A stretch of DNA of 30,788 bases from an uncultured bacterium. GTDB taxonomy: Bacteria > Krumholzibacteriota > Krumholzibacteriia > LZORAL124-64-63. The notes under the pieces are model-generated. The model saw only the letters and a list, made by a program, of their open reading frames with translations, had not been told where the DNA came from and did no database searches. Location of the stretch: positions 1-30,788 of the forward strand of contig CAINDZ010000414.1 of the NCBI GenBank assembly GCA_903847545.1. The letters run 5' to 3'. Below, piece by piece: positions 4,523 to 21,600 of this stretch (the first letter of the stretch is position 1; each line of letters opens with the position of its first letter). The translations under genes and the position numbers were made by a program.

Positions 4523-5662
4523 CTACCGGATCGTGGGGAATGGGGAAGCGCCCGAGCTGCCGTGGCAACTCACGCAAGCCCGCCCCTCCTCATGACTCTC
4601 GTCATGACACTTCTTGCACAACTGCCCCTGGCCCACGCCGGGATACGGGCTCGGCAGCGCGTACGACCCCGACACGACCCCGTCGTCGGCCAGGCGGTAG
4701 ACCCGGAAATCCCAGCGCCCGGCCGCCGGCCCCGACGATCCGTGCGCCCGGTGGCAGGTCAGGCACATCAGCCTGCTGCCGGCCTGCGGCCCACTGGTGC
4801 CGGTGACCGTCATGGCGGCGTCCTCGAACGGGACCTGGGAGACATAGGCATCAACGCTGCTGCCGGTCCCGGGGCTGGCATCGCCCTCGTAGCGGTTGTA
4901 CCGCGTGCGTTCGTCGGAGCCGAGCGTCCCGTCCACCGGGTGCTCGAACGCGGCGCCGCTGCCTTCCTCGTGGTACATGCCGTGGCAGTTGGCGCACCAC
5001 CGGGACATGCCTGAGCGGTAGGCGGTGTGCGACGCGGCCGTTTCCGTGGCGCCGGAGTCGGTGATGTCGAGCCCCTCGGCGACGGGCGCGGGATACAGGA
5101 AGTTCGCCACGCCGTTCTGCACCGGCCCGGGGCCATTCAATGACCGGAACCCGTCCGAGCCGTGGGGGTCGTGGCAGCTGGTGCAGCCGAGCAGGGCCGA
5201 CGGGAACGTGCCGCCGGGGGCGTGCGACCAGCGGGGATCGGCGTTCGTGCCCCGCGCGGGCGACACGATGTTGTGTCCCGAGGCGTGGCCGCCGAGGGGC
5301 GACGCGGCCCCGCCGGCGGCGTCATTGATGTTGTCCTCGAGCAGCCACGTGAAATTTCCGGCGCCCCGCTCGGCAGGAGGCACGTTCGGCGCCGGGCCGA
5401 AGACGCCGTAGCTGCCGTGACAGGTCAGGCAGAGGTCGGTGGCCGAGGCCGCCACCAGCAGGGGGCGCGTGCCGTCGAGGGCGATCTCGCCGGCGGCCGC
5501 ATCGTGCATGATGTGGCAGGTTCCGCAGGAGCCGACGCCGCCCGCATGAATGGGGCCGCCGTGGGCCGGCACGGCTGCCAGCACCCAGGCCAGGCCGGGC
5601 GCCATGACGAGGACGCAGGCCTTGCGCAAGGCCCGGACGCGGCGGGATCGTGAAGGCGTCAT
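4523..5662 (-). CDS. OmcS-family multiheme cytochrome c, paralogue 2, seven CxxCH (379 aa)
   Basis: CGTCH, CLTCH, CTSCH, CANCH, CLTCH, CKKCH and CVSCH. OmcS-type motifs HAGGV..C..CHIMH, GHNIV, APGGTFP, GMSRWCANCH, VPFED and CLTCHRAH. Signal peptide present. Start moved to ATG 5662. Confidence 0.85.
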   Translation of the reverse strand: MTPSRSRRVRALRKACVLVMAPGLAWVLAAVPAHGGPIHAGGVGSCGTCHIMHDAAAGEIALDGTRPLLVAASATDLCLTCHGSYGVFGPAPNVPPAERGAGNFTWLLEDNINDAAGGAASPLGGHASGHNIVSPARGTNADPRWSHAPGGTFPSALLGCTSCHDPHGSDGFRSLNGPGPVQNGVANFLYPAPVAEGLDITDSGATETAASHTAYRSGMSRWCANCHGMYHEEGSGAAFEHPVDGTLGSDERTRYNRYEGDASPGTGSSVDAYVSQVPFEDAAMTVTGTSGPQAGSRLMCLTCHRAHGSSGPAAGRWDFRVYRLADDGVVSGSYALPSPYPGVGQGQLCKKCHDESHEEGRACVSCHGSSGASPFPTIR

Positions 5663-5703
5663 CGTGAGTGCCCCCATGGGGATACGGCCATGTTCGTCCC
5701 TCA

Positions 5704-5712
5704 ATTCTAGCA
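5704..5712 (-). promoter_or_regulatory. Possible extended -10 promoter for paralogue 2
   Basis: Minus strand TGCTAGAAT, downstream of the hairpin and about 40 nt before the start codon. -35 is weak. Confidence 0.45.
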
Positions 5713-5732
5713 CGGGGCAGGGGTTCAGGCCA

Positions 5733-5779
5733 GCCCGCAAAAGCGGGCGGGCCCCGCGGATCGCTCCGCGGGGCCCGCC
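5733..5779 (-). terminator. Terminator or stabilising hairpin after the omcS-like gene
   Basis: Perfect 15-bp stem (5746-5760 / 5765-5779) with a GCGA tetraloop on the minus strand, then CGCTTTT. An alternative hairpin GCCCGC-TTTT-GCGGGC (5733-5748) overlaps it. Confidence 0.7.
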
Positions 5780-5809: not shown

Positions 5810-6907
5810 CTAGTAGAGCTTGTGGTCGTTGTAGTCCTTGGCATGGCACTTGTTGCACAGCGAGCGCTGGTTCGCCGAGAACGTGTAGCCATAGTACTTG
5901 CGGTCGACATCGGTCTGGATGAAGCCGGTGTCGGTCGCCAGCGGGTGCGACTGCGAGATCAGCATGACGCTCATGTCCCAGCGGGCGGCGTCCGCGAACG
6001 GCGAGGCGTGGGCGCGGTGGCAGGTCAGGCACATGACTTCGTCAGCGCCGTCCGGGCCCACCGTGTTCGTCGTCGAGTTGACGGTCGCCACGTCAGCCTG
6101 CACGTCCTCGAAGGGCACCAGGCCGTTGTACGACGTGGCCTGCGTGCCGCTGGTCATGTCGTCGGAGCTCACGTACGCGTTGTACGCGGCGGCGATCGTC
6201 GAGCCCAGCTCGCGCGTCGGGTGCACGAAGTTGGTCGTGTTGTCCTCGTGGAAGTTCTCGTGGCAGTTCGCGCACCAGTCGCTCATGCCGCTGATGTACA
6301 CGGTGTGCTTGGCGTTGGTCTCGTCGCCGTTCGTGGCGGAGCCGACGTAGGTGCGGCGGCTGTTGCCCTTGGCGATCGGGGCCGGGTTGGCGAAGTCATA
6401 GCGGCCACCGGCGTAGAAGGGGCCGAGGTCGGCGCCGTACAGCAGGCGGAAGTTCTGGTTGCCGTGGGGGTCGTGGCAGCTGGTGCAGCTCAGGTTGGCG
6501 CCCGAGAAGTCGCCGCCGGGGGCGGTCGTCAGCGTCACGTCGGCAGCGATGCCCTTCGTGGGAGCGACGACGTTGTGGCCGTGGCTGTCGCCCTTGCTGA
6601 TGCCCGTCGAACCCCAGGTGAACGTGCGGGTCACCCAGTAGAAGTCGCCGCCGGGGCCGTAGCCCTGGCCGTTCATGAACTGGCCGTAGTTGGCGTGGCA
6701 GCGCAGGCAGGTGTCGCTCGGCGAGCCGGCGTTCAGCAGGAACTCGTTGCCGGCGGGATGGGCGGCGTCGACGACGGCGCCGTTCTGGCTGTTGTGCATG
6801 GTATGGCAGCCGGCGCAGTAGGCGACGCCACCATCATGGAACGCGAGCACGGAGCTGGCCGACAGGCCGAGCACCAGCACCAGGGCGAACTTGATGAGAT
6901 TCTTCAC
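5810..6907 (-). CDS. omcS: OmcS-like hexaheme cytochrome c, putative nanowire subunit (365 aa)
   Basis: Sec signal MKNLIKFALVLVLGLSASSVLA, then FHDGGVAYCAGCHTMHN, PGGDF, GHNVV, TLTTAPGG, CTSCHDPHG, GMSDWCANCH, CLTCHRAHAS and QRSLCNKCHAKD. These are collinear with G. sulfurreducens OmcS as I recall it. Six CxxCH. GTG start at 6907 with GGAGG 7 nt upstream. Confidence 0.9.
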   Translation of the reverse strand: MKNLIKFALVLVLGLSASSVLAFHDGGVAYCAGCHTMHNSQNGAVVDAAHPAGNEFLLNAGSPSDTCLRCHANYGQFMNGQGYGPGGDFYWVTRTFTWGSTGISKGDSHGHNVVAPTKGIAADVTLTTAPGGDFSGANLSCTSCHDPHGNQNFRLLYGADLGPFYAGGRYDFANPAPIAKGNSRRTYVGSATNGDETNAKHTVYISGMSDWCANCHENFHEDNTTNFVHPTRELGSTIAAAYNAYVSSDDMTSGTQATSYNGLVPFEDVQADVATVNSTTNTVGPDGADEVMCLTCHRAHASPFADAARWDMSVMLISQSHPLATDTGFIQTDVDRKYYGYTFSANQRSLCNKCHAKDYNDHKLY

Positions 6908-7065
6908 GAGTGAGCCTCCAGAAGCAAGTTTGCTGGTCCCGCACGACGGCACGGAACCGTTACGAGTGACCTTTGCCGATCCGCTGCCGGAAGGCCTGGC
7001 AGGATCGACGCCGAACGAACCATCCACCTTGCAGAGACGCCTTCCACGAACCTCTTCCCAAACCA

Positions 7066-7087: not shown

Positions 7088-8068
7088 CTATTCAGCCGTC
7101 CCGATGGCCTGGACGTTGAATACCTGCACCAGGCTGCGGAACGACTGCGCCACGTAGACGTGGCCGTTGCCGTCCGCCGCCATCGACACCGGGTAGTAGA
7201 AGGCGCCCGGTGTGTCGCCGATCGAGCCGTACTCGGCCACGAACTCGTTCCGGCCATCGAAGGCCATGATCTTGTGGCGCAGCTGGTCCAGCACCAGCAG
7301 CGTCCCGCCCGGGCCGGCCGCGGCGGCGACGGGGAACACCATGCGGCCGGGGGACGAGCCCACGCGACCGAAGCTGCCGGTCTGCTGGCCATCCTCGTCG
7401 ACGACCAGCATCACGTGGAGGTTGCCGCCGGGCACGCGGAACGTGCCGTCGGGCATCTGCGCCGGGCGCCCGAGGTTCATGTCCAGCTGGGCGTCGTCGT
7501 TCTGGCCCTCGCCGATGACGTGCGACCACAGTAGGGCGCCGGTGTCCTTGTCGTGCTTGGCCATCAGGCCGCTCGCGCCGTCCACCGTCACGTAGTGGCC
7601 GTCGCGTGCGACCAGCAGGTGCGTGGGGCGCCAGTCGCCCGCGGGGCGCTCGACACGGTAGCCGTCGGGTTCGCCGTAGGTGTCCAGGCGCACGATCGAC
7701 GCGTCCTGCCCGTCGACCGCCGACGTGGCCACGAGGCGGCCCTCATGGTCGACGGCGCCGTCGCTCGGCAGCGAGATGCCCGCGAAGCCGCCGGTGCGGA
7801 AAGTCTCGCAGCCCGCGGCGTTGAACACGTGCAGCGCGCTGTAGGCGGATTCGGTGACGCAGATCTCGCCGGCCACGGCATCGCAGGTGACGGCTGCGGG
7901 GCGGGCCCGGCCGTCGTGGTTCTGCGAGAGGTTCAGCGCGCCCGAATACTGGAAGCTGACCGTGCCGGTCGTCGCAGCCGCCACCGACGCAAACGCAAGG
8001 GCGGCTGTTATCACAGCAACACCCTGGAGGCCGTTCGCGATCGTGGTGGAGGGGCGATGGAAGGTCAC
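7088..8068 (-). CDS. Exported NHL-repeat beta-propeller (326 aa)
   Basis: NHL-like repeats (FGRVGSSPGRMVFPVAAA, YGSIGDTPGAFYYPVSMAADGNGHVYVA...VQVF). N-terminal hydrophobic signal. No CxxCH. Confidence 0.8.
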   Translation of the reverse strand: MTFHRPSTTIANGLQGVAVITAALAFASVAAATTGTVSFQYSGALNLSQNHDGRARPAAVTCDAVAGEICVTESAYSALHVFNAAGCETFRTGGFAGISLPSDGAVDHEGRLVATSAVDGQDASIVRLDTYGEPDGYRVERPAGDWRPTHLLVARDGHYVTVDGASGLMAKHDKDTGALLWSHVIGEGQNDDAQLDMNLGRPAQMPDGTFRVPGGNLHVMLVVDEDGQQTGSFGRVGSSPGRMVFPVAAAAGPGGTLLVLDQLRHKIMAFDGRNEFVAEYGSIGDTPGAFYYPVSMAADGNGHVYVAQSFRSLVQVFNVQAIGTAE

Positions 8069-8133: not shown

Positions 8134-8161
8134 ATCATATCACACGCCCGGACGATGTCAA
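8134..8161 (-). promoter_or_regulatory. Sigma70-type promoter for the NHL/omcS-like unit
   Basis: Minus strand TTGACA (8161-8156), 16-nt spacer, TATGAT (8139-8134) with an extended TG, and an upstream T-rich tract. Confidence 0.75.
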
Positions 8162-8260: not shown

Positions 8261-8348
8261 GAAAACAGAAGCGGCAGGCCGGGGAAACCGGCCTGCCGCC
8301 CGGGGTTGGAACGCCCCGCGGGAGGGTTTGGCGACCCTCCCGCAGGGG
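8261..8348 (-). terminator. Double hairpin / intrinsic terminator after the 42-heme cytochrome
   Basis: 10-bp stem at 8318-8343, then a perfect 12-bp stem at 8271-8299 followed by TTCTGTTTT on the minus strand. Confidence 0.8.
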
Positions 8349-8357
8349 TGTCGGAAG

Positions 8358-11300
8358 CTAGGAACCCTCGCGCTTGGGGCGCAGCTTGTCGGTGTGGCAA
8401 CCGATGCAGAGCTTGCCGTCGGGATCATCCCGCAGGAAGCGCACGAACTGCGACCCGTGCGGGTCGTGGCAGCTGTCACACGTCATCTTCAGGCCCGTGC
8501 GGGGATCGACGGTCGTCTCGCCCATCGGGTGGTCGGTGTGGTCCCGGTAGGTGTGGCACGCCAGGCAAACCTCGGGGGCCTTGACGCCGTCGGTGCTCTT
8601 GGGAGCCGCCAGGTGCGGGTCGTGGCAGGCCGTGCAGAGGTCTCCCTTCACCTCGGGATGGCGATGGGCCGCCTTGCGGTTGAGGTCCACCTTGTCCTGG
8701 TGGCACGTGCCGCAGATGGCCGCCTGCGACCGCGGCAGCAGCGGCGCGTTCGGCGACGTGTGCGGCGAGTGGCAAACCGTGCAGGCCTTCTCGCCCGTCA
8801 GCGGGGCGTGCAGGGTCCCTGTCTTCAGGTCCTCCTTCATCGCCACGTGACAGCCGAAGCACAGCGCCGGCTGCGCGGCCTTCGTCGCCTTCGTGCTGCC
8901 GACATGGCAAGCCGCACAGTTGCCCTGCGCGAACGGCGCGTGCTCGTTCGGGTGGGGCAGGTTCGCCCGCTTGGCGGCGTGCGGCGTGTGGCAGCCCGCG
9001 CAGTCCGCGTCGGCCACCGGGAAGCCGCGGTGCTTGGCCGGCAGCGCCTGCGGCGCGTGGCACTTGGCGCACAGGACCTTCGTCTCGGCGACCAGGTTCA
9101 TCTCCACCGGGCCGCCGTGCGGGTCGTGGCAGCGCGTGCAGGCGCCGGTCTTCAGCGGCGCGTGCACCACCGGCAGCTTCTTGAGCTCCTCGATGGGCTT
9201 GTGGCAGCTGACGCACAGCTCCGCGGCCGGCAGCCGGAGCAGCTTCGGCTGCGGCGAGGCATGGGGGCTGTGGCAGGCCTCGCAGCGACCCTCGCGCACG
9301 GGGGTGTGGGCGAGCTCCGGCCGGGGCGTCAAGGTGGACGGGTCGTGGCAGGTCGCGCACACCACGGCCGTCGTCGTGCCCTTCAGGAAATGCTCGCCGC
9401 GCGAGACGTGGGGGTTGTGGCACGCGCTGCACTCGCCGTCCCCGAACGGCGCATGCACCGTCTGCCCCGGGGCCGCGGCGTCCGGCAGGCTGTCGTGGCA
9501 CTGGGCGCAGACCGGCGTCTGGTTGGCGATCGGCTCGGCCGACTGGTGGCAGCTGGCGCAATCGCGGTCGGCGAACGGCGGGTGGGCCTTGGCCACCAGC
9601 AGGCCCGGCACGGTCGCGTTGTGCGGCTCGTGGCAGTCCAGGCACGCCATGGAGGCCCCGTCGCGCCCGCGGTGCTTCTCCTGGAAGCCGGCGCCCTTCT
9701 CGTCATGGCACCGGAAGCAAAGCGCCGGCACCTTGTCGCGCAGGAACCCGGGACCCTGGCCGCCGTGGGGGAGGTGGCATTCCAGGCACTCGCCCTGGCT
9801 GGGCGGGTGGATGGAGGCGGCGCCCTTCGGCGCGGCGATGTCCTCGTGGCACAGCCCGCAGAGCTTGTCCTTGTCGGCGACCAGGAGCACCTTGCGCGTC
9901 GAGCGGTGCGGATCGTGGCACGCCGTGCAGTTGCCGTCGCTCACCGGCTTGTGGCCCTGCCAGCCCGTTCCGGACGGCTGCCCCACGTCGTGGCAGGCCG
10001 CGCAGGTCGGGGCCACCGGCTGCCGCAGCAGCGCGTGCTCCTGCCCGCCGTGCGGCAGGTGGCAATCCAGGCAGGCGCCCTCGGCCGCCGGCGGGTGCAG
10101 CGCGCCGCCCTCGGGCTGCTTCGACAGGTCGGCGTGGCAGCCGGCGCACAGGGCCGCCGGGGCCTTGGTCAGCAGCGCGGGCTGGTCCGAGGTGTGCGGC
10201 TTGTGGCAAGCCAGGCACTCGCCGCGGGCCACCACGTCGTGCGTGTTCGGGGCCGAAAGTTCCAGCTGCACCTTGGTGTGGCAGCCGAGGCACAGCGTGC
10301 CGGCTTCCTTGCGCAGCAGGGCCGGATGGCTGGCGCTGTGCGGGTCGTGGCACACCGAGCACGCCTGCTTGGCCAGCGGGGCGTGGACCACGGTCGCGGT
10401 CGCGCCCGCCGCCGGCAGGACGTCGGTGTGGCAGCCGGCACAGACGGCGTTCGTCTCGTCCTTCATCAGCTTGGGACGGTCGCCGCCGTGCGCGTCATGG
10501 CATGTGCTGCAGGCGCCCTCGGCCGCCGGCGCGTGCTGGACGGCGCGCTCGAACGGCTGCGATTCGTGGCAGGACAGGCAGACCTTGCGCTCGCCGGCCA
10601 CCAGCAGGGCCGGCCGCGCGCTGCCGTGCGGCGCGTGGCACTGCACGCACTCGTGCTCGGCCGCGGGCGGGTGCGGGACCTTGCGCGACGCCGGGTCGTC
10701 GTGGCACTGCACGCAGAGTTCGGCGGCGGGCACCGTCAGGGCGCCCTTCGCGGCGGTGGGCGAAAGGTCGTGGCACTGCGCGCAGTCGCCGTCGGCCATC
10801 GGCGCGTGCTGCACCGCGTACTGCAGGTTCTCGCCGTCGGCGCTGTGGGGGTCGTGGCACGACACGCAGCCCGAGACCGTGCCCTGGACCTTGTGCGCCT
10901 TGGCCAGCTTGCCGGCATCGGCGTGGCACGACAGGCACATCTGGTCGCCCGGCAGCTTCAACAGGCCTGCGTTGTCCGACGCGTGCGGGTCGTGGCACGC
11001 CGCGCAACCGCCCTTGGCCAGGGGCTGGTGCACGTGCTTGCGCTGGTACGGCTTGGGGTCGTGGCACTTGAAGCATGCCGCCTGGCCGGCCGCCGGCAGC
11101 AGTCCCGGCTGGCCCGAGCCGTGCGGGTCGTGGCAGCCGGTGCAATCGCCCTTGCGCAGCGGGTCGTGCACGACGTCACGCTTCGTCACGCCGATCAGGT
11201 CCTTGTGGCACTCGGTGCACAGGTCCTTGCCCGTGTTCTTCAGCACGAGCTTGCCGATGACCCCGTGGCGCCGGTGGCAGCCCTCGCAGTCGCGGGCGGC

Positions 11301-11486
11301 AAAGGGCTGGTGGGCCGACTTCGCGGGGACCTTCTTCAGCGTCTCCTGGTGGCAATCGACGCATCCCTTCGTCTTGAAGCCGGCGGCCGCGGCCGGGGCG
11401 GCGCACAATCCGGAGACGAGGGCCAGCGCCAGGAGGGCCCCCAGGGCGTCCCGGCGACGGGCATGGGCAGCGGTGCTGTGATCCAC
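8358..11486 (-). CDS. Giant multiheme cytochrome c with 42 CxxCH motifs (1042 aa)
   Basis: 42 CxxCH counted by hand. Signal peptide ends ...AAPAAAA. GTG start at 11486 with AGGAGG 7 nt upstream; the track start at 11846 overlaps the upstream gene. Confidence 0.93.
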   Translation of the reverse strand: MDHSTAAHARRRDALGALLALALVSGLCAAPAAAAGFKTKGCVDCHQETLKKVPAKSAHQPFAARDCEGCHRRHGVIGKLVLKNTGKDLCTECHKDLIGVTKRDVVHDPLRKGDCTGCHDPHGSGQPGLLPAAGQAACFKCHDPKPYQRKHVHQPLAKGGCAACHDPHASDNAGLLKLPGDQMCLSCHADAGKLAKAHKVQGTVSGCVSCHDPHSADGENLQYAVQHAPMADGDCAQCHDLSPTAAKGALTVPAAELCVQCHDDPASRKVPHPPAAEHECVQCHAPHGSARPALLVAGERKVCLSCHESQPFERAVQHAPAAEGACSTCHDAHGGDRPKLMKDETNAVCAGCHTDVLPAAGATATVVHAPLAKQACSVCHDPHSASHPALLRKEAGTLCLGCHTKVQLELSAPNTHDVVARGECLACHKPHTSDQPALLTKAPAALCAGCHADLSKQPEGGALHPPAAEGACLDCHLPHGGQEHALLRQPVAPTCAACHDVGQPSGTGWQGHKPVSDGNCTACHDPHRSTRKVLLVADKDKLCGLCHEDIAAPKGAASIHPPSQGECLECHLPHGGQGPGFLRDKVPALCFRCHDEKGAGFQEKHRGRDGASMACLDCHEPHNATVPGLLVAKAHPPFADRDCASCHQSAEPIANQTPVCAQCHDSLPDAAAPGQTVHAPFGDGECSACHNPHVSRGEHFLKGTTTAVVCATCHDPSTLTPRPELAHTPVREGRCEACHSPHASPQPKLLRLPAAELCVSCHKPIEELKKLPVVHAPLKTGACTRCHDPHGGPVEMNLVAETKVLCAKCHAPQALPAKHRGFPVADADCAGCHTPHAAKRANLPHPNEHAPFAQGNCAACHVGSTKATKAAQPALCFGCHVAMKEDLKTGTLHAPLTGEKACTVCHSPHTSPNAPLLPRSQAAICGTCHQDKVDLNRKAAHRHPEVKGDLCTACHDPHLAAPKSTDGVKAPEVCLACHTYRDHTDHPMGETTVDPRTGLKMTCDSCHDPHGSQFVRFLRDDPDGKLCIGCHTDKLRPKREGS
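8370..11365 (-). repeat. Tandem doubled-CxxCH protein repeats of about 40 aa
   Basis: The recurring unit HxP---G-CxxCHxPH-S----LL------LCxxCH is visible throughout the protein. Confidence 0.85.
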
Positions 11487-11506
11487 GTTCGAGCCTCCTG
11501 CTGCGA

Positions 11507-12856
11507 TCACTTCGAGGCCGCGTTGTTGATGGTGGCGGCATTGGCGGTCGCCGCCTTGGCGACCTCGGCGACGACGCGCGCCACTTCCTGCTCGGCACCG
11601 GGCAGGATGACGATCGGGGATTCCTTCTCCAGGCGCGCGATGATCATGGCCATGTGGTCGCGCATCGCGTCGCGCTTCATCATGCCCAGGATCTGCTCCC
11701 GGCACTGCTCCAGGGGCAGCGGCTGCCCGGGCTCCAGGGCGACGACCTGCGCGACCACCCAGCCGTCGGGCACCTGGTAGGGCTCGGGCACCATGTTCAG
11801 CTTCACGTCCTCGGGCTTCAGGCCCATTTCCTCCGGCCGCAGCCACATGTCGGGGAACGGCGCCGGCCCCTTGGCCACGCGCTTGTCGTTCTCGGCCAGC
11901 CAGCGCACCGTCGCGCCGCCGAGGATCTTCTCGCGCAACTGGTTGGCCACCTCGGGCGAGGCCGCCTTCAGGCTGGCCATCTTCAGGCGCGGCGGCGCGG
12001 TCACTTCAAGCGTGTGCGCGCGGTAGTAGTGCGAGATCTCCTGGCTCGTGGGCGCGAAGTCGAACTGCAGCAGGACGCGGAGCGCCTCCTCGAGGATCGT
12101 GCTGCGCTCGAAGCGCGCGCGCAGCATCACCATCTGCGGCTGCTGGTCCATCTTCTGCGCCTTCAGCTGGCGGTTCACGGCGACCTGGGCCAGGTGGTCG
12201 CGCAGGATGTCGTCGCGGCGCTGCGAGGCGTCCGGCTTGCCGACCAGGCCGTGGAACTCGGTGAAGCGCAGCTCGCGCGTGAAGTCGGCGACCGTCAGTG
12301 AGCGGCCGTTGCCCACGCGGGCCAGCACCTCGGTGCTGTTCTGCAGGCGCTTCTGCACCGCGGCCTCGGCCGAGCCGTAGTCCAGCGACCGGAGCACCGT
12401 CGAGTCGACCGAGACGCCATAGCGGCGGAACAGTCCGTCCAGGTAGGCGCCGACCGCGGCCTTGCGCTTGTCCTGCACGCCCGGCGTCTCCGCGGGGATG
12501 GCCAGGGCGACGGAGTCGAGCAGTGCCTTCATGCACTCGTGACGGACGACCTCGTCGCACTGGTTGCGGACGGTGAACTCCTGGTCCAGGCCCATGCGGA
12601 AGCCTTCCTGGATGATCAGGTGGTTCTGCGTGAGCCGCTTGAGGATGTCCTTCGGCTCGCCGAACGACAGCGCGACGTTGTTCTCGTTCCTGACCTGCAT
12701 CAGGCCGAGCTCGATGTTCAGCTCCGTGGTGGTGACGGTGTCGGGCCCGACCAGCGCCAGGGGGATTTCCCGGGGTGTTTCCGCCATGGTGCGGACGGCC
12801 GAGGCCATCACGACGGCCGCGGTGGCCAGGGCCAGGCGCTTCGTTGTCGATTTCAT
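11507..12856 (-). CDS. SurA/PrsA-like exported chaperone with a parvulin-like domain (449 aa)
   Basis: ATG at 12856 with GGAGGAG and an ATGA overlap with the upstream stop. Signal peptide. Two 'LA.VG...T..EL/DF' SurA-N-like starts and a C-terminal 'A..L.EKI..G....LA...PEP..V.DGW.V..V' rotamase-like pattern. Confidence 0.7.
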   Translation of the reverse strand: MKSTTKRLALATAAVVMASAVRTMAETPREIPLALVGPDTVTTTELNIELGLMQVRNENNVALSFGEPKDILKRLTQNHLIIQEGFRMGLDQEFTVRNQCDEVVRHECMKALLDSVALAIPAETPGVQDKRKAAVGAYLDGLFRRYGVSVDSTVLRSLDYGSAEAAVQKRLQNSTEVLARVGNGRSLTVADFTRELRFTEFHGLVGKPDASQRRDDILRDHLAQVAVNRQLKAQKMDQQPQMVMLRARFERSTILEEALRVLLQFDFAPTSQEISHYYRAHTLEVTAPPRLKMASLKAASPEVANQLREKILGGATVRWLAENDKRVAKGPAPFPDMWLRPEEMGLKPEDVKLNMVPEPYQVPDGWVVAQVVALEPGQPLPLEQCREQILGMMKRDAMRDHMAMIIARLEKESPIVILPGAEQEVARVVAEVAKAATANAATINNAASK

Positions 12857-13929
12857 GGGGTGGGCTCCTCCAGGAGGCGTTGCAGGTTGGGCCAGAGTTG
12901 ATCGGCGCCCTTGCGCATCTGTTCCAGCAGCGTCGGCGTGTGCGTCAGCCCGAACCACCCGGTGTGCGGGGCGCCCGGGGCCAACACGGAGTCGGCCGCG
13001 CGGACACGCCCGGTCCCGAGGTCGAGCACGCGCCAGGTCATCGTCAGGTCCCCGGCCTCGCTGGCGCCGGCGGCGGCGTCCTCGGGCTCGGGCGGCGCGG
13101 CCACCGCGACGGCGCTGCCGTCGCGGCCGAACGAGACCACCTCGGCCTCGACGGCCAGGGCGACGCCGAAGGCCTGCGCCAGCAGGTCGCGTCCGCCGCG
13201 GTCCAGGCGGGTCAGGTCGCGACCGTCGGCCAGCGCCACCCCCGTGGCCAGCGCGGGATCGAGCACGCGCCGCGAGGTGTCGCGCACCGCCTCGGCGAGC
13301 AGGCACGTCGTGGCCTGGCGCGCCGCCAGGGCGTCCAGGCCGATGCCCGTGCCCGGCAGCACGAGCAACGCGGCGCCCTTGCCGGTCAGGTTGCGCAGCG
13401 AAGGCATCGCGTCGCGAAGCACGTCGACCAGGGCGTGTTGCCAGCGGCCGGTGGGGACGGGCGCCTCGGCGATGCGGATGTCGGCCAGCCTGCCCGTGCC
13501 GGTCGCCACGGACCGCCCGGTCGCCGTGAAGCGACCGTCGCCGGAAAGCAGCGTGAAGGCGACCAGCGTCTCGGCGCCCACCTCGTCGCGCAGCCCCGAC
13601 AGGAACGCCGGCGGCAACGACGCCGCCGAGCGAACCCGGAAGCGGTGGACGAGTTCCTCGGTGGCGGCGCGGTCGGCCAGCGGCTGGTCGGTGGCGCCGA
13701 CCATCGCGGCGATCATGTCCAGCGCCGTGCGGCGCACGGTCGCGACATCGGCCTCCAGGCCGGCCACGGGATCGCCCTCGATGTGCAGCATGATGGCGAT
13801 GGTCCCGGGTCGCGGCGCCTGCCCGGCGGCGACCAGCGTGTCGGGCGCGTCCCCGGCAGCGCCGGCGCCCGTCGCCAGGAGCAGCCCGGCGACGGCGCAC
13901 AGCAGGCGGCTGCCGGGCACGATGCGCAT
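12853..13929 (-). CDS. Exported protein with two tandem CsgG/TolB-N-like domains (358 aa)
   Basis: Signal peptide. Two 'G.....V...V/L ... R.V/LD..TGR' patterns (EVGAETLVAFTLL..RSVATGTGR and AFGVALAVEAEV..RVLDLGTGR). TGATG coupling to the upstream gene. Confidence 0.5.
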   Translation of the reverse strand: MRIVPGSRLLCAVAGLLLATGAGAAGDAPDTLVAAGQAPRPGTIAIMLHIEGDPVAGLEADVATVRRTALDMIAAMVGATDQPLADRAATEELVHRFRVRSAASLPPAFLSGLRDEVGAETLVAFTLLSGDGRFTATGRSVATGTGRLADIRIAEAPVPTGRWQHALVDVLRDAMPSLRNLTGKGAALLVLPGTGIGLDALAARQATTCLLAEAVRDTSRRVLDPALATGVALADGRDLTRLDRGGRDLLAQAFGVALAVEAEVVSFGRDGSAVAVAAPPEPEDAAAGASEAGDLTMTWRVLDLGTGRVRAADSVLAPGAPHTGWFGLTHTPTLLEQMRKGADQLWPNLQRLLEEPTP

Positions 13930-14510
13930 CAGAACAGGGTCTCCAGCGCGGCGCGGACGTTGGCGCGGGCCACGTCGAAGATGCCGGCCGTGCCGCCGCC
14001 GAACAGCTTGCGCATGACCGAGGTGCCGTCGGTGCGGGTCTGCGAGGACCAGACCAGGCGCCCGGTCTGCGTCTCGTGCAGCTGGTAGACCGACGTAACG
14101 ACCTGCGCGGGGTCATGCGCGGAGCGCTCGGTGCCGTATTCCTCGACGGTCCCGAAGAAGACGCCGTCGACCTGCAGTCGCTTGCCCAGTTCCATGACCT
14201 GTTCGGGGCTCATCACGCGGTCGGGGGCGATCTTCATCTCGGACACGATCGCGAGCGTCTCGCCGCGGTCGGCCACCTCGACCTGCCCGGTCTTGAGGAC
14301 CTCGGTCACGAAGATCGACTGCACGCGCTGTGCCGCGAACGTGTCCTGCGTGAGGTTGTAGAAGGGGAAGATGGCGACCCGGCGAATGAAGCTGAAGTCG
14401 ACGTCCTCGCGGATGTACTGGCTGGCGCGGGGGCCGCATCCGGCCGCCAGCGAGCACAGGACCACCAGCGCCGTGGCCAGGCCGAGGGCTGCGTTCCTCG
14501 TGTACTTCAT
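13929..14510 (-). CDS. CsgG/GNA1162-like outer-membrane lipoprotein (193 aa)
   Basis: Lipobox LAAG-C25 with Gly at +2. RVAIFPFYN, ELGKRLQVDGVFFGTV and ETQTGRLVWS match this fold family. ATG at 14510 after AAGGA. Confidence 0.7.
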   Translation of the reverse strand: MKYTRNAALGLATALVVLCSLAAGCGPRASQYIREDVDFSFIRRVAIFPFYNLTQDTFAAQRVQSIFVTEVLKTGQVEVADRGETLAIVSEMKIAPDRVMSPEQVMELGKRLQVDGVFFGTVEEYGTERSAHDPAQVVTSVYQLHETQTGRLVWSSQTRTDGTSVMRKLFGGGTAGIFDVARANVRAALETLF

Positions 14511-14580
14511 CGTTCGTCCTTTCGCCGGTCGGCCCGCACCCGCAGGGCAGCCCGTCACACGAAAATCTGCGATACCGCAG

Positions 14581-16779
14581 TCAGAATGTCCAATATGCGC
14601 GCAACTGGAACCCGAACGGCCAGCTTTCGTGCCCTTCGAGCCGCTCGAAGTTCTTTTCGACGCTGCCGGCCAGGGACAGGCGCGTCCGCGCCTGCCAGTC
14701 GACGGTGACACTGCCGCCGCGGCGCAACTGGCCGGTGCGCGAGTCCTGGTAGTCGTTCGCCTGGAAGGACGTGAGCACGCTGCCGCCGCGGAGCGGGCTC
14801 CACGAGAGGGTGTTGCGGACGATCCAGTCAGTTTGCTCCCGGCGCTGGCTGGTGGCCTGGCACGACCACGAAAGCAGGGGCCTGATCTCCCAGGAAGCGT
14901 CCACTTCGGCCTCGCCGAACGACGTGAAACCCGAGCCGGCCTGCTGCCCCACCCAGCGCTCGGTCCGGCGCACGTCCAGGCGCACGCCGGGACGCGGCAC
15001 GCTACGGATCTCCGAGGCCACCAGCCACGAATCCGAATCGGCCGTCCCGTATTCGCCGGTGCGCCAGCTGCGCGACACGCGCTGGACGAACGTCAGCTGG
15101 GGGGCCGCCTGCCAGGTGGCGTCCGTCATGACGGACTCGGTGACCTGCCGGACGCTGTAGGTGTTGTCGCGGGCCTGCATCCACGACAGCCTGGCCGACA
15201 GGGCTCCGGGGTCGCGCCGGGCCAGCGAAACCTGTCGCGTGTTGGACTCCGAACGCAATCGCGTCGGGCTCTCCTCGGTGTTCGTCTGGTACTGCCCGGA
15301 GAGCGACCAACCGGCCACGCGCCATGTCGCCAGCGCACCCTTGTTGACGCGCTCGAGACGGCCGATGCCCAACTGGTCGCGCCGATCGAGGTTGCCGTCG
15401 ATCCTCACCTGCAGGCTCGGGGCGGGGCTGAATTCGAGGGCGCCGGCGAGCGTTGTCCGCTCCTGCCGCGACGAGCGGTTGGGCTGCCCGGTCTCCGTGG
15501 GCCCGTAGACCTCGAACTCGGTGACGAACAGGTCGCCGAGCGTCGGCCCCAGCTTCCGGTCCACCAGCTTCAGGCGGCGATGCGAGACCGACCCGGTGAA
15601 GGTGATCTCCCACCCCTGGCGCCCCGACTCCTGCTCGACGTAGCGGATGCTCCAGGCGCCCGGGGCCACGGCGCTGCCCCAGTCGCGGCCTTCCGCCTCG
15701 TCGCAGAAATAGAGGTCCCACTGGAACATCGCGGGGATGCTGCCGATCCGGCGGTCCACGTAGAGGAACGCCGACGTCATCGCCACGGGCTCGCCGAAAT
15801 CGAGGGTGATGTTCCGGTAGTCGCCGCCGAAGTCGCGCCCGGCCGGCGCGTTGTCGCCGAGGTTGATGATCGTGGGGACCAGGCGGTCGTTGTCGAACAG
15901 GGCCGGCACCTGCTCCGGCTGCGTCTCGAGCGGATCGAGGAAGCTCGGCGTGTCGTCCACGCCGAAACCGCCGGTCACCGGCTGCCGGTATTGCGACACG
16001 ATGTCGCCGGTGAATTCCTCGCGCTGGTCGAAGCGCCGGTGGCCCATCGTCCACGACACGCGCCCGCGCGGACCGGCAAAGGCGCGGTTGCCCTGGTATT
16101 CCACCTGCTGTGTCGTGTAGCGGGCCAGGCGGTTGTTCGTGACGGCGTCCTGCTCGACGAGCGTCGCGCGGTACTGGAGATTGTCCTGGCGGGAGAGGTC
16201 CAGGCGCAGCCTGCCGCTGCCGAGGCGGTCGCGGTTCTCGCGGTCCTCGCCCTCGGCGCGCCGCCACGACGCGTTGTCCTGGTAGTTCGCGTCGCCCGAA
16301 AGCCTGCCCAGGCGGGCGCTGGTCCACACGCCGAACTCGAGGCTGTCGTCCCGTTGAGCCGGGATGCCGACGAAGTCCTGGTCCGAGCGATTGCCCCGCG
16401 CGAACGCATTGAAGCGCCAGCTGCCGGCCTGCATCGCCAGGCTGCTCGAAGGCGAGAGCACGGTCATGTGGTTGTCGACCGTCGTGCCCGCCGCCGTGCC
16501 CCGCAGCAGCTCGCGCCGGGCCGTGTACTGGAACTGCAGGCTGGCCCGCTGCGAGAGGCGGATCGTCTGGTCCACGCCGAACAGGTGCCACTGGTTGTCG
16601 CTGCTGTACGCGGTGCCGCCGGAGTTGCCCTCCTGGTGCAGCGAGCGCACGTCGAACCTGCCGTCGAGCGCGAGTGCGGGACCGACCACGCCGGCCACGA
16701 CCATGCCGGCCACCAACAGGCGACCGACACATGCCACGCAGTGGCGCTCGGGACGGGGCTTCGCGGCGAGCGGCGACAT
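14581..16779 (-). CDS. Large outer-membrane beta-barrel protein with an inserted soluble domain (732 aa)
   Basis: Signal peptide, alternating amphipathic beta-strands throughout, and C-terminal GFQLRAYWTF ending in an aromatic residue (BAM-type signal). Confidence 0.75.
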   Translation of the reverse strand: MSPLAAKPRPERHCVACVGRLLVAGMVVAGVVGPALALDGRFDVRSLHQEGNSGGTAYSSDNQWHLFGVDQTIRLSQRASLQFQYTARRELLRGTAAGTTVDNHMTVLSPSSSLAMQAGSWRFNAFARGNRSDQDFVGIPAQRDDSLEFGVWTSARLGRLSGDANYQDNASWRRAEGEDRENRDRLGSGRLRLDLSRQDNLQYRATLVEQDAVTNNRLARYTTQQVEYQGNRAFAGPRGRVSWTMGHRRFDQREEFTGDIVSQYRQPVTGGFGVDDTPSFLDPLETQPEQVPALFDNDRLVPTIINLGDNAPAGRDFGGDYRNITLDFGEPVAMTSAFLYVDRRIGSIPAMFQWDLYFCDEAEGRDWGSAVAPGAWSIRYVEQESGRQGWEITFTGSVSHRRLKLVDRKLGPTLGDLFVTEFEVYGPTETGQPNRSSRQERTTLAGALEFSPAPSLQVRIDGNLDRRDQLGIGRLERVNKGALATWRVAGWSLSGQYQTNTEESPTRLRSESNTRQVSLARRDPGALSARLSWMQARDNTYSVRQVTESVMTDATWQAAPQLTFVQRVSRSWRTGEYGTADSDSWLVASEIRSVPRPGVRLDVRRTERWVGQQAGSGFTSFGEAEVDASWEIRPLLSWSCQATSQRREQTDWIVRNTLSWSPLRGGSVLTSFQANDYQDSRTGQLRRGGSVTVDWQARTRLSLAGSVEKNFERLEGHESWPFGFQLRAYWTF

Positions 16780-16911
16780 GGGTTCTGCGCAGCCTCGGCT
16801 GGAAGGGTGGACCGGCGGTGGGGGACGGCTTCCGGCGCGCCCGGGTCAGGGGGCGACTGCGGCGCGCGTAAGTCCTTGTCCGCCGTAGGATTCCTGTCGT
16901 TGCGAGTTAAA

Positions 16912-16940
16912 AAAATAACAAATAGGACGAAAATAAGCAA
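16912..16940 (-). promoter_or_regulatory. Possible sigma70 promoter upstream of the beta-barrel gene
   Basis: Minus strand TTGCTT-N17-TATTTT with TG extension, inside a strongly AT-rich intergenic patch. Confidence 0.35.
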
Positions 16941-16986
16941 TCATGAACTTGGGATATCACGGGGGGTTACGAAATACCCTCGGTCC

Positions 16987-17832
16987 TCAGGGGACTTCCG
17001 TCATGGACGCCATCAACCGGGTGTCGGCCGTCGGTCCCGAGTTCTTCAACTGGTGGCAGCCGAGGCAGAGTTCGGGCTGCGTCGGGAACGCCACCAGCAG
17101 GTCGCGCTGCCCGCCCGTCAGGGAGTGGCACGTCTGGCACTCGACCTTGCCGTCGAACAGGCGCAGGCGCGGGTCGATCGGCGAGCGCAGGCGACGCTCG
17201 TCGTGCCCTGAACCGGCCACGGCTTCGACACCCAGGGGGTGGGTGGCGTGCTGGTTGAAGGTCAGCGATTCGCCGCCGGCGTCACCCTGCCAGGTCGAGC
17301 CGCTGCCGCTGGCGTGGCAGTTGAGGCAGCCCTGGCTCGGTGACTGGCCTGCCAGCAGCGCCGCATCGCGATGATACAGGGCTGCGGCGGCCCGGTGCGC
17401 CGGCGAGAGTTTCGACAGGTCGGCGCCGGGCTCGTGGCAGCCGGCGCAGTGCGCCGGGACGCCGTCACCCAGGCCCTCGGCCGGCATGGTCAAGGTGCCG
17501 ACCGATGTCTTGAGCCGGCCGAGGTCATGGAACGTGTGACATCCGGCGCAGTCGGCCTTGGGGTCGTCATGGAAGCCCAGCTGGCGCGACGCCGGCGATC
17601 CCTTGGCGGACACGTCGCGATGGCACGTGCGGCACGCCCGCGAGCGGGGGTCCGGGTCGTCGGGACCGGCGGTCGCGACCGCCCGCGCGGCGGCTCCCAG
17701 GTGGCAGCGCGCGCAGGCGATCCCCTCGTGCGGATCCGCAGCCGACGCCGAAAGCCCGTTCGCGGCCACGGAGGCTGCGGACAGGAGCAGGGCCGACAGG
17801 ACGGCAAGGTGCGTGCGCAAGGTGTCATTCAT
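16987..17832 (-). CDS. Exported heptaheme cytochrome c (281 aa)
   Basis: CARCH, CRTCH, CAGCH, CAGCH, CLNCH, CQTCH and CLGCH. Signal peptide from M at 17832. No clear RBS. Confidence 0.85.
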   Translation of the reverse strand: MNDTLRTHLAVLSALLLSAASVAANGLSASAADPHEGIACARCHLGAAARAVATAGPDDPDPRSRACRTCHRDVSAKGSPASRQLGFHDDPKADCAGCHTFHDLGRLKTSVGTLTMPAEGLGDGVPAHCAGCHEPGADLSKLSPAHRAAAALYHRDAALLAGQSPSQGCLNCHASGSGSTWQGDAGGESLTFNQHATHPLGVEAVAGSGHDERRLRSPIDPRLRLFDGKVECQTCHSLTGGQRDLLVAFPTQPELCLGCHQLKNSGPTADTRLMASMTEVP

Positions 17833-18105: not shown

Positions 18106-18612
18106 ATGGACATGCGCCGACATCGCCAAGCGCCGGAACCCCGGTTCCGCCGGGCCGCCTGCCTGTCGGGCCTGTTCGTGCTGCTGGCCGTCCTGCCTCT
18201 CGCGGCAACGGCGGCGCCGCAGGCCCGCGGCGAGCATGCGCGACCGGCGGGGGATGCGCCGGGAGACGTGTTCTCGCGGCTGGCGTCGGCGTTCGAATCA
18301 GGCGATGCAGGCGGCCTGGCCGCGCTCGTGCATCGCGAGGGCCTGGCCGTCACGGACCGCGGCGAGCGATCCAGCGAGTACAGTCCCAGCCAGGCGCTCT
18401 ATTTCTTCAAGAACCTCTTCCAGGGGCAGCGCACGCTGCTGTTCGCGTACCGCACGTCGCCCGACGATGGTGACGGAGGCCGGGCCCGGGCCATGGCGCA
18501 GTGGAAGCGTCGCCGGATCGACTCCGAAGTGGTCGTCGAGGTGCAGGTGGTCCTCGTGCTGGCGCTCGACGAAGGGCGCTGGCGTCTCGCCGAGATCAAC
18601 ATGGTTCGCTAG
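18106..18612 (+). CDS. Small exported NTF2-like protein, DUF4783-like (168 aa)
   Basis: Signal peptide. AFESGDAGGLA, EYSPSQALYFFKNLF and GRWRLAEI resemble DUF4783. Start uncertain (18061, 18106 or 18112). Confidence 0.55.
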   Translation: MDMRRHRQAPEPRFRRAACLSGLFVLLAVLPLAATAAPQARGEHARPAGDAPGDVFSRLASAFESGDAGGLAALVHREGLAVTDRGERSSEYSPSQALYFFKNLFQGQRTLLFAYRTSPDDGDGGRARAMAQWKRRRIDSEVVVEVQVVLVLALDEGRWRLAEINMVR

Positions 18613-18620
18613 GAGGCGCG

Positions 18621-21600
18621 TTGGGCCGGTCCTGGCAGCGAGTGACAGTTGCCGTCGGCGCACTGTGCGTGGTGGCCCTCGGCGTGCTGCTGGCGCTGGC
18701 GGGTCGCCGTGCCGATGCCGCCGTGCTTCCCGGTCGCGTCGCGTTCGTCGGCCTGTCGATGCTGGCGTGCATCTCCGGTGGCCTGGCGTTGCGGCCGGGG
18801 CCGCGGCGCCAGGCCGCCGGCGCCGTGTTCCTGCTGGGCGCCGCGCTGGTCGCCGCGGCCATGTTGCTGCCGGGAGCGGGCGGGCGCAGCGCGACGGCGC
18901 CGGGCCTGTCGCGCGACGTGGATCTCGCGGCCGAGGCCCTCGAGCATGACGCGGCCGGCATCTGCGCGTTCGCCGAGCGGGGAGCCGCGCAGTTCGTGGC
19001 GCCGCCGGCCGGGCCCGGCGGTGCCGACTTCCGCCGGCTGGCCGGGCATGCCGCGACCTGGCGGCCGCGCGCGGCATGGAATCGCGAGGTTTCCCTCGGG
19101 CTGTGGCGCGACGGCCGGCTGGCTGCCTGGACCACCGGTGCCATTCCACTGGCGGCGCCTCGTCCCGGCCTGGCCGCTCCCGTCTCGAGGCTCGAGGCCT
19201 ACCGCGATGCATGGGTGCTGAGGCGGCTGCAGCCGTGCCCGGGCGGCGCCGTCCTCGAGGTCCAGATGGCGCTTCCCGACCCGGGTGTCGCCGTCGCCGG
19301 CTGCGATTTCGAGGTGGTCCCGGGCGGCGCCCGCGCAGGCGCGACGCATCGCGATGTCGACCTCGACGGTGACGCGACCGCCATGGTCGTGCGCGTCCGT
19401 CCCACCCTGGGGGCCGCCGCGACCGCGGCCGCCTCGAACGGCGCGCGCCTGTTGGCGCTCATGCTCGTGGCCTGGGGCGCGCTGCTTGTCGCCGTCGCCG
19501 CGCTCACCGGCCGGGGCCTGGTCGTGCTGGCGGCGGCGGTGGCGGCGCGCGCATTCCTGGCGGCGGTCGACTTCCGGCAGTGGCTCGTCGCCTCGTTCCC
19601 GTCGGTGGAAATGCCGACTGCGCCCGGGTCGTGGTCCAGCCTGATCGATCCCTCGTACTTCGCGACGCCCTTGGCATGGGGCTGGTTCGCGACTACGGCC
19701 GACGCATTGCTGACGGCCGCCCTCGTGGCCTTCGCCGTGCGACTGGCCCACGTCGGCCTGGCGACGATGCCCGCCGCACGGCGCGACCAGCGGACGGGAG
19801 ACCCGGGCCCCTGGTGGCCCGTCGTGGCGTTCGCGGGCGCGGGGGCGATCCTGTTGCCGGGGCTGCGCGAGCTGGTGATCCAGCTGGCCAACAGCGCCAA
19901 CGCGCGACTGATCGGGCCGGGCGTGACGCTCTCCCTGTTGACGTTCTGGGCGCTGCACGTGGTGATCCTGCTGCTGGCCATGTCGGGACTGGCGCTGCTC
20001 GGGCTGCTGGCGGCCGCGACGCGCTCCGCAGCGCCGGGGCTTTCGCCGGCGCGGGTCGGCGGCGTCCCGGCCTTCGCCGGGGCGGCGGCCGGGGGGTGGA
20101 TGGCCGGCGCCGCGCCGGCCACCGGCCTCCTGGCCGGCGCGCTGGCCGCGGCAGTGTGGTGGTTCGAGGCCTGGGTGCGGTCCGTGCCCGGGCGTGGCGG
20201 CCGGTTGGCGTGGCCCGCCCTCGTCCTTGTGGCCGCCCTGTGGAACTACGCGTCGCTGCGGCACGTGCACGACACGGCGGAGAAGGTGTGGCTCGAGCGG
20301 CGGGCCGTGGACATCACCGAGGACAAGTCCGCCTGGTCGCGCAGCCTCCTGCAGACGATGCTCGTCGACCTGCAGGCGATCGACGACACGGCGCCGGCCG
20401 AGGAACAGGACGAACCGTGGCGCGACGAGGCGGCATGGCGGTTGTTCCGCGCGTCGATGTTCCACGACCTGCACCTGCCGGGCCTCGTCGAGATCCTCGA
20501 CCGTGACGAGCGCAGCGAGGGCCTGTTCGCGACCGGGTTCCTGCGCGACTACCACTACGAGACGATGGCGCGGTCGGGGTGGCAGACGGCCGGCGGCTCG
20601 CCGGCCGGCGCGGGCGACGACGTGGTGTTCCGCTCCGAGCGGCGGCTGTACAGCGGCGGGCAGGAGGACATCCTGGTGGCCGAGGCGCCGCGCCGCTCGG
20701 GCCGCGGCTGGCTTCGTGTCGAGCTGCCGCTGCGGTCCTGGCGCGTGTCCACGCTGAACGCGACGCCCGAACAGCCCGACACGGACGCGGCGCGGCGCTA
20801 CCGGCCGCGGCAGGAGATGGACCGCCCGGTCCTGTTGCTTCTGGCCGATGATGCCGGCTGGCGTGGCTCGGGCGCCGAGGGATTCCCGGGGCCCGAGGGA
20901 GATGCGCCCGTGGCCCGCCTGCGCAGCGGACAACGCTCCTGGGCGCTCGTGCCGATCGGGGGGCGCGACTGGCTGTGCCGCTGGGCCGCCATCCCGCCTG
21001 CCGCAGCCCGCGCGCCGGGCGAGGGATTCCTCATCGGCGTCGAACGCCCGACGGTCGGGGACACGCTGCTGGACGCGTCGAGGCTGGTCCTGATCGACAT
21101 CGTGGTCTTCGTCGCGCTGGCCGCGCTGGTCCGGTGCCGGCGGCTGTTCGGCCGGGGCGGCTGGCAACCCGGCATCCAGGAGAAGTTCCTCGCCGGCTAC
21201 CTGCTGCTGGGCCTGGTGCTGCTGCTGATGGTGGGGTATTCGGTCGACCGCGTCGGCTACGAGCGCGTGCGGAGCGAGGCGCGGCAGCAGGCGCGCGACG
21301 GGCTGGCCATGGCGATGCAGCAGCTCGGGGGCCTGCTTTCGGACCAGGCGCGCGACCTGGCCGACAGCGGCAGCCTGGACGAGGCGATGGGCGCGGGGGC
21401 GACGGCCGGACTCGCGGACGGCGACCTGCGTCGCGCGGTACTCTTCGGCGGCGATGGCCGCCTGCTGTTCGACGGCGCGGACACGCCGCTGACGGCGGAC
21501 GAGGCGGCGGCCCTGCTGGCGGCCGCGCGCCAGTCGCCGGTCGTCCTGGTGCGCGAGCAGGGCGAGGTGTTCGCCGGTGTCGCGGTGCCCGTGGCCCTCG

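Follow-up and report, generated by a model that had tools for sequence, protein, structure and literature searches.

The window examined here, a stretch of 30,788 nucleotides (contig CAINDZ010000414.1 of GenBank assembly GCA_903847545.1), carries on its minus strand the gene of a cytochrome with 42 heme-binding motifs in a single polypeptide. It is very probable from sequence comparison that this protein is the single-chain form of a pair of cytochromes, OscI with 26 hemes and OscJ with 16 hemes, the names being those of the osc cluster of Geobacter sulfurreducens. On balance, we lean towards reading it as an OscI-OscJ equivalent that is exported by the Sec pathway, is soluble in the periplasm and serves as a wire toward a filament of the OmcS type; the trans-periplasmic wire, taken by itself, is a plausible function that we infer with more reserve. 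The protein family, the osc cluster and the gene names have already been published, giant cytochromes have been noted since 2008 and fused orthologues are present in public genomes of cultured Geothrix. What the present survey adds is a quantified regularity, namely a heme-site total of 42 with about half of the loci fused.

The fused gene and its split relatives

The coding sequence occupies positions 8358-11486 of the minus strand, with a GTG start at 11486 and a stop codon at 8358-8360. An earlier note, made from the sequence of the window alone, had counted 42 CxxCH motifs in 1042 amino acids (aa) for this interval, and both the count and the coordinates proved to be exact; CxxxCH and CxxxxCH motifs are absent (zero of each). 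Between the heme motifs lie 17-29 aa, and the mature chain has about 24.0 aa per heme. The gene contains 70% GC, and the minus-strand frame is taken as the coding one because its GC content at third codon positions (GC3) is 0.95. The plus-strand frame over the same interval is also open; it contains zero heme motifs and was set aside as a shadow open reading frame (ORF) of high-GC DNA. In Pfam and NCBIfam searches, 20 stretches of doubled CXXCH were found, with 663.6 bits for PF09699 (Paired_CXXCH_1) and 631.3 bits for TIGR01905, and the Pfam matches to Cytochrome_C7 fall on these doubled-CXXCH matches. All 42 heme motifs are invariant among 74 orthologues, in which both termini are conserved as well. 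The gene and its parts are as follows.

11494-11499, minus strand: Shine-Dalgarno sequence AGGAGG, 7 nucleotides (nt) 5' of the GTG start, read from the upstream sequence
8358-11486, minus strand: 42-heme cytochrome gene, very probably the fused OscI-OscJ equivalent (ORF, 42 CxxCH, GC3, Paired_CXXCH_1 matches)
11385-11486, minus strand: predicted signal peptide of the signal peptidase I (SPase I) type, aa 1-34 (sequence, cleavage consensus of the clade, helix 7-32 in the AlphaFold model)
9546-11384, minus strand: OscI-equivalent part, hemes 1-26, aa 35-647 (alignment to the 26-heme protein of locus L005, spacing fingerprint)
9510-9545, minus strand: linker at the junction of hemes 26 and 27, aa 648-659 (place of the stop and second signal peptide in split forms)
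8358-9509, minus strand: OscJ-equivalent part, hemes 27-42, aa 660-1042 (alignment to the 16-heme protein of locus L005, spacing fingerprint)

The earlier note named two adjacent cytochromes near omcS, GSU2494 and GSU2495, and guessed that the window protein might be their fusion equivalent. This was right in substance: passages of two papers place GSU2495 and GSU2494 in the omcS region as c-type cytochromes and name them oscI and oscJ (PMC3495685, PMC13194489), and 26 heme motifs have been reported for GSU2495 (PMC2996986, PMC12977616). The two genes lie in an eight-gene block, GSU2500-GSU2493, which the relevant passages tie to the maturation of OmcS nanowires (PMC13194489, PMC12977616). In G. 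bemidjiensis, the neighbouring genes Gbem_1124 and Gbem_1125 carry 26 and 16 motifs, respectively (PMC2996986 supplement).

Since 26 and 16 add up to 42, it was tested whether such a pair tiles on the window protein. The G. sulfurreducens proteins were compared by their published names and heme counts, and the tiling was done with the split pair of locus L005, where adjacent genes encode 26 and 16 motifs. The best alignment of the 26-heme protein covers aa 38-648 of the window protein (336 bits) and that of the 16-heme protein covers aa 623-1031 (226 bits), so that the two tile end to end as the guess of a fusion implied. In the window protein, gaps 1-25 and 27-41 are matched by the spacing fingerprints of the pair, down to the 28-aa gaps 8 and 25 and the unusual gaps of 15-19 aa. 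The gene order at L005 (OmcS-like cytochrome; proteins of 680, 192, 507 and 194 aa; peptidyl-prolyl isomerase (PPIase); 26-heme cytochrome; 16-heme cytochrome; NHL protein) is the one reported for the osc block of Geobacter. In the window, a single polypeptide is encoded, in which 12 linker residues take the place of a stop codon and a second signal peptide, whereas the doubled-CXXCH architecture and the position between an OscH-like PPIase and an OscK-like NHL protein, beside OmcS-family genes, are the same, and the split 26 + 16 orthologues are colinear with hemes 1-26 and 27-42. The junction between hemes 26 and 27 is, at 17 aa, the tightest inter-heme spacing of the protein. In the OscJ-equivalent part, a C-terminal HP-x-G...DP-R-T motif is conserved, and a β-hairpin is modelled (strands 989-1001).

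A rival reading is a repeat-driven mis-assembly that joined or inflated two genes, and its probability is negligible: the gene is repetitive internally and the metagenome-assembled genome (MAG) is in 790 contigs, but the DNA repeats inside it are merely 60-79% identical and at most 80 nt long, the gene is spanned without indels by Logan contigs, and the same 42-motif single ORF occurs in 35 other species-level genomes and 75 protein clusters. The Logan contigs come from three lake-water metagenome runs, all of the same study and possibly of the source samples, and the gene is covered by them completely or almost completely; one of 4364 nt corresponds to 8340-11900 with 7 mismatches, and a second corresponds to 8383-11269 with 1 mismatch. 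A different MAG contains an orthologue of 87% identity, again with 42 motifs in a single frame. Short 'joints' that appeared in the read table were matches of 20-25 nt from unrelated contigs. Mis-assembly, which the earlier note had named among the grounds for giving up its claim, is effectively excluded.

Among the 120 best clusters of a large protein collection, exactly 42 motifs were counted in 75, which are 1028-1100 aa long, and exactly 26 in another 24, which are about 650-690 aa long. A genome scan with one genome per species and a 5-sequence alignment as query returned 80 loci, 69 of them complete; of these, 35 are fused (one 42-motif ORF) and 34 are split (adjacent ORFs with 26 and 16 motifs). 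With the window counted as a row, 64 of 70 rows reach 42 by CxxCH alone. The other six have, at one position, CxxxCH (five rows) or CxxSH (one row). The five CxxxCH cases (L028, L031, L039, L081 and L085) belong to one split clade and concern the 14th motif of the 16-heme gene, i.e., the 40th site, which is kept with altered spacing. In split forms, the first protein stops a few residues past heme 26 and the second starts with a signal peptide of its own; fused forms have a linker of 12-24 residues in place of the two, and this linker is shortest in the clade of the window.

A tree was built without the junction region, with the 34 split loci aligned together with the fused forms, and the fused or split label changes only twice on it. 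One large fused clade contains Holophagaceae (including three cultured Geothrix species), Krumholzibacteriia, Eisenbacteria and Ignavibacteria; the window protein groups with uncultured lake MAGs and Krumholzibacteriia with 100% support. A second fused clade, made up of Acidobacteria and an Anaeromyxobacter MAG, has 100% support in the Shimodaira-Hasegawa-like approximate likelihood ratio test (SH-aLRT) and branches from within the split forms, so that the fusion either happened repeatedly or spread by transfer. Repeated fusion is classically a sign that two proteins function as a single unit. The family is present in records labelled with at least 10 phyla or candidate phyla, among them Geothrix and Anaeromyxobacter; in the latter, one MAG has the fused 42-motif form, and A. 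oryzae and A. oryzisoli have split 26 + 16 forms. In the window's phylum, a strong match was found in 70 of 201 sampled genomes (7 of 7 in the window's genus), and both states occur within the phylum as well as within the family. A search with the OscJ type gave mainly Desulfobulbales-like matches.

A leaky stop at the junction was considered and rejected; the 'stops inside' were terminal stops, frameshifts in two MAGs (L094, L096) and a TAA in one MAG, and no in-frame stop is conserved. The TAA, at locus L097 (G016:C110), lies in frame just past heme 25 and reflects a pseudogene or an error in the MAG. A small contig (G000, C29:152-838; L002) carries a fragment of another cytochrome of the doubled-CXXCH kind, which shares 38% identity with the C-terminal part and is interrupted by a TAG in frame.

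Contact between the split halves was modelled by co-folding the C-terminal eight hemes of an OscI-type protein with the N-terminal eight hemes of an OscJ-type protein. The score was 0.35 (best control 0.00), with a contact agreement of at least 96% between runs and a partner pLDDT (predicted local distance difference test) of at least 82. Of 80 solved complexes, 58 attained the mark used, as did 2 of 110 mismatches, but scores of 0.60 or below were seen for only 7 of those 80 and for both passing mismatches; these counts hold only roughly, since custom alignments were used. The co-fold lends weak support to the predicted contact.

Export and predicted fold

The N-terminus of the protein shows an RRR n-region followed by a hydrophobic core. 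Close relatives have the common cleavage consensus A-x-A|(A)G(P)FK-x-K-x-C, from which a cut by SPase I after AAAA34 is predicted for the window protein. The 'SGLC' cysteine was examined as a lipobox and dismissed, as it has Leu at -1 and the Cys is missing from relatives L007, L008 and L021. Lipoprotein anchoring was likewise rejected: a lipobox-like motif occurs in at most 7 of 74 fused orthologues and none is conserved in the window's clade, in contrast to several 26-heme forms of the OscI type, which are lipoproteins. The signal peptide is the sole long helix of the AlphaFold model and no further hydrophobic helix is found. The earlier claim of a cleavable signal without lipobox or transmembrane anchor is thus borne out. 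The mature chain with its hemes has a calculated mass of about 132 kDa.

The full chain was modelled by AlphaFold with 74 orthologues and without hemes, giving a mean pLDDT of 81.6 and a predicted template modelling score (pTM) of 0.61; the pLDDT is 78-82 across the junction of hemes 26 and 27. MtrA is the only solved relative that was found by sequence and also the only clear structural match (6r2q_A; Foldseek E 4e-6). With VIA-align, residues 298-536 of the model, which hold 10 hemes, were superimposed on residues 64-333 of MtrA, practically the whole of that protein, over 225 residues with Z 10.4 and a root-mean-square deviation of 4.0 Å, the runner-up having Z 4.0. The hidden Markov model of the DmsE/MtrA decaheme family, TIGR03508, gave 413 bits against a curated cut-off of 192, summed over 9 stretches. 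Thirty-nine non-proximal histidines are invariant in the family and two more are conserved at 82% and 65%; hence nearly all 42 hemes should have bis-histidine (bis-His) ligation.

The window protein therefore shares with MtrA/DmsE (PDB 6R2Q chain A; TIGR03508) a sequence-family match, the 10-heme superposition and a predicted linear chain of bis-His hemes. It differs in having 42 hemes in 1042 aa rather than ten in about 300-350 aa, and it resembles a concatenated MtrA rather than a member of that family. The dodecaheme 'nanowire' cytochromes of the GSU1996 type (PDB 3OV0) are, like the window protein, peptide-minimised polymers of small heme domains for which a wire or a store has been proposed; GSU1996 is, however, built of c7-type triheme-like domains, and the match to 3ov0 is insignificant (Foldseek E 7.5, TMt 0.17). 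The chain most likely folds into an extended heme rod like that of MtrA. The non-globular rod of the earlier note stands locally, for the segment of 10 hemes that superimposes on MtrA, and is limited to that segment. MtrA has a pitch of about 0.8 nm per heme, from which a length of about 30-35 nm can be extrapolated for a straight chain of 42 hemes.

Genes around the cytochrome

The genes and signals found around the cytochrome in the window are listed below.

16987-17832, minus strand: secreted 7-heme cytochrome, first gene of the cluster (sequence)
14581-16779, minus strand: predicted outer-membrane β-barrel of 732 aa, OscD-like, with an inserted jelly-roll (weak colinear match to OscD-position proteins, AlphaFold)
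13929-14510, minus strand: OscE-like lipoprotein of 193 aa, lipobox LAAGC (phmmer 4e-31 to L003, 1e-27 to L005)
12853-13929, minus strand: protein of 358 aa at the OscF position (GC3 0.94; weak match, E 0.01, to an L003 protein of 350 aa)
11507-12856, minus strand: OscH-like PPIase of 449 aa, directly 5' of the 42-heme gene (Rotamase_2; phmmer 1e-7 to the OscH-like protein of L005)
8269-8301, minus strand: terminator-like hairpin with a 14-base-pair stem and a T tract, 57 nt past the stop (sequence)
8134-8161, minus strand: near-consensus sigma-70-like promoter, TTGACA-16-TATGAT with TG (extended -10), 5' of the NHL gene (11 of 12 matches; shuffles expect 0.2)
7088-8068, minus strand: OscK-like NHL β-propeller protein, 3' of the 42-heme gene (NHL match; phmmer 4e-19 to the NHL protein of L003)
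5810-7027, minus strand: OmcS-family hexaheme cytochrome, 6 CxxCH (OmcS, PDB 6ef8, E 6e-57)
4523-5740, minus strand: OmcS-family cytochrome, 7 CxxCH (OmcS, PDB 6ef8, E 1e-25)

A PPIase (OscH), an NHL protein (OscK), an OscE-type lipoprotein and an OmcS-family cytochrome are thus all present, while a separate OscG gene was not found in the cluster of the window. The gene order differs from that of the osc cluster in that the OmcS genes lie downstream. When the flanks of the 69 complete loci (up to 10 kb) were searched with tblastn, NHL genes were found at 66, OscE/G-like genes at 60, OmcS-like genes at 53 and PPIase genes at 43, the NHL gene being mostly directly downstream. At one locus on a 230-kb contig (L003 / L034), the 42-heme locus is accompanied by two PPIase genes and, upstream, by 25- and 15-heme cytochromes with motifs of the C4xC/C2xCH type, indicating a more complex set of envelope cytochromes.

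The genes of the PPIase, the 358-aa protein and the lipoprotein are joined through overlapping stop and start codons. Two longer ORFs in this region were discarded: an 869-aa 'PPIase' ORF (11507-14116, minus strand) is an over-extension, with a GC3 of 0.97 for the 449-aa part against 0.60 for the extension, and a 946-aa ORF (14371-17211, plus strand) was judged by GC3 to be a high-GC shadow or over-extension. Between the 42-heme and NHL genes lies an AT-rich spacer of 289 nt with two hairpins, one of them terminator-like. Given the terminator and the promoter in this spacer, the 42-heme gene seems to close a 'machinery' operon, and the NHL and filament-subunit genes seem to have their own promoter, which suggests that the machinery and filament genes are transcribed separately.

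The central domain of the barrel protein is conserved in 29 homologues and is homologous to OscD-position proteins. Its AlphaFold model (pLDDT 83.9) has about 28 long strands and a jelly-roll-like insert at aa ~262-427. A fold search did not discriminate between kinds of barrel, as TonB-dependent receptors, ushers and MtrB all gave template modelling (TM) scores of about 0.3. The barrel gene was detected in 34 of the 69 loci with the queries used. Compared with MtrA/DmsE, no genes recognised as of the MtrB or MtrC type are adjacent in the window, and the barrel of about 28 strands in the putative operon has a fold that is generic for large barrels.

A database protein of 1217 aa, P0093, consists of a SurA-like PPIase fused to a 26-heme cytochrome of the OscI type, and this natural fusion hints that the PPIase may act directly on OscI-type cytochromes. 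Divergent from the cytochrome cluster and beside it, a sensor kinase of 1595 aa with HAMP, HisKA and HATPase domains and a very large N-terminal region is encoded at 18501-23288 on the plus strand; it is a possible regulator of the cluster.

A candidate wire across the periplasm

In the mechanism that we propose, the 42-heme protein would be expressed from the last gene of a transcription unit for the barrel, the OscE-like lipoprotein, the OscF-position protein, the PPIase and the cytochrome, exported by Sec and left soluble in the periplasm as a chain of about 21 two-heme 'doubled CXXCH' units. Electrons would cross the periplasm by hopping from heme to heme along this chain, and the likely route would begin with quinol oxidation at the inner membrane and end at the base of an OmcS-type filament or at the outer-membrane machinery of that filament. 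The exact number of 42 hemes and the conserved termini point to a defined geometry with docking at each end, which argues against a mere store of electrons. In this scheme we infer the overall length, the end partners, and the direction and purpose of electron flow.

Several points weigh against such a wire. For a GSU2494 (PccJ/OscJ) mutant of G. sulfurreducens, the passage that mentions it (PMC9248073 citing Aklujkar 2013) reports wild-type behaviour. In passages of the papers concerned, the osc cluster is presented as machinery for the folding, secretion and morphology of OmcS (PMC13194489 citing Shen 2025, PMC12977616), and in the first of these OscI and OscJ are merely listed as periplasmic. 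The mutant and this description provide slender but genuine evidence that the respiratory role is not a strong one. The 16-heme Gbem_1125 was tabled without a full-length match in G. sulfurreducens or G. metallireducens (PMC2996986 supplement). Lastly, a single segment of 10 hemes was matched to MtrA, and the overall chain of the model may be curved or coiled.

The description of the cluster as machinery would suit a rod that is mainly structural, i.e., a base, primer or ruler for the polymerisation of OmcS-type subunits or a tether between filament and envelope, with the bulk of electron delivery left to other cytochromes. In the window, the 42-heme gene appears to be grouped in transcription with the PPIase, lipoprotein and barrel genes and not with the OmcS genes; the heme number fixed at 42 and the conserved termini would suit a ruler or a docking element, and the PPIase-cytochrome fusion P0093 exists. 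A scaffold would, however, have no need for about 41 conserved distal histidines and an unbroken MtrA-like chain of hemes, and the wild-type-like behaviour reported for the GSU2494 mutant counts against it as well. We regard a mainly structural rod as rather unlikely.

The trans-periplasmic wire can be taken a step further. The 42 hemes could be a molecular ruler, in that an OscI-OscJ rod of fixed length would match the distance between the inner membrane and the envelope's outer face, with one end threaded through the large barrel, and would give OmcS-type filaments a hard-wired root in place of diffusing shuttles. This is a speculative extension which we hold to be distinctly doubtful. A related arrangement, to which we give only a slim chance, is a conduit in which the barrel of about 28 strands sheathes one end of the rod, as MtrB does for MtrA, and a single chain leads from the periplasm through the outer membrane to the filament. 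It draws on the MtrA-family sequence and fold, on the large barrel gene in the same putative transcription unit and on length: from the general dimensions of MtrA, a straight 42-heme rod of about 33 nm would exceed a typical periplasm by about one membrane thickness. Against it stand the fold search, which does not single out MtrB among large barrels, and the detection of the barrel gene in just half or so of the loci.

The high density of hemes, 24 aa per heme, might also serve a periplasmic capacitor that stores up to 42 electrons and buffers respiration when acceptors are scarce. Such a role was proposed in 2008 for the '40-heme' cytochrome of Anaeromyxobacter dehalogenans (PMC2330069). The protein of strain 2CP-C, compared here by its description, likewise belongs to the giant multiheme cytochromes, and its genus has members of the 42-heme family; the published count differs by two; in a literature search for 42-heme, 26-heme or periplasm-spanning cytochromes, nothing specific besides this remark was found. 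A store is improbable as the main function, as it leaves unexplained the exact total of 42 across many phyla in fused and split forms alike, the near-universal linkage to NHL, OscE-like and OmcS-like genes, and the extended MtrA-like geometry.

The window adds a new member of the family in an uncultured lake lineage. In contrast to the host of the osc cluster, the organism here is an uncultured bacterium from a lake, with Krumholzibacteriia as its closest named relatives, and it carries a complete locus of the OmcS type. How electrons pass across the periplasm to cytochrome nanowires is debated, and in the accepted picture of Geobacter they are carried by small diffusing cytochromes. As a conserved unit that is genetically welded to the genes of OmcS assembly, the 42-heme cytochrome is an obvious candidate for a wire that stays in place. 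In cultured Geothrix, the fused form offers a single protein that can be purified, imaged and deleted, and the exact conservation of the heme number, whether fused or split, provides a simple and testable regularity.

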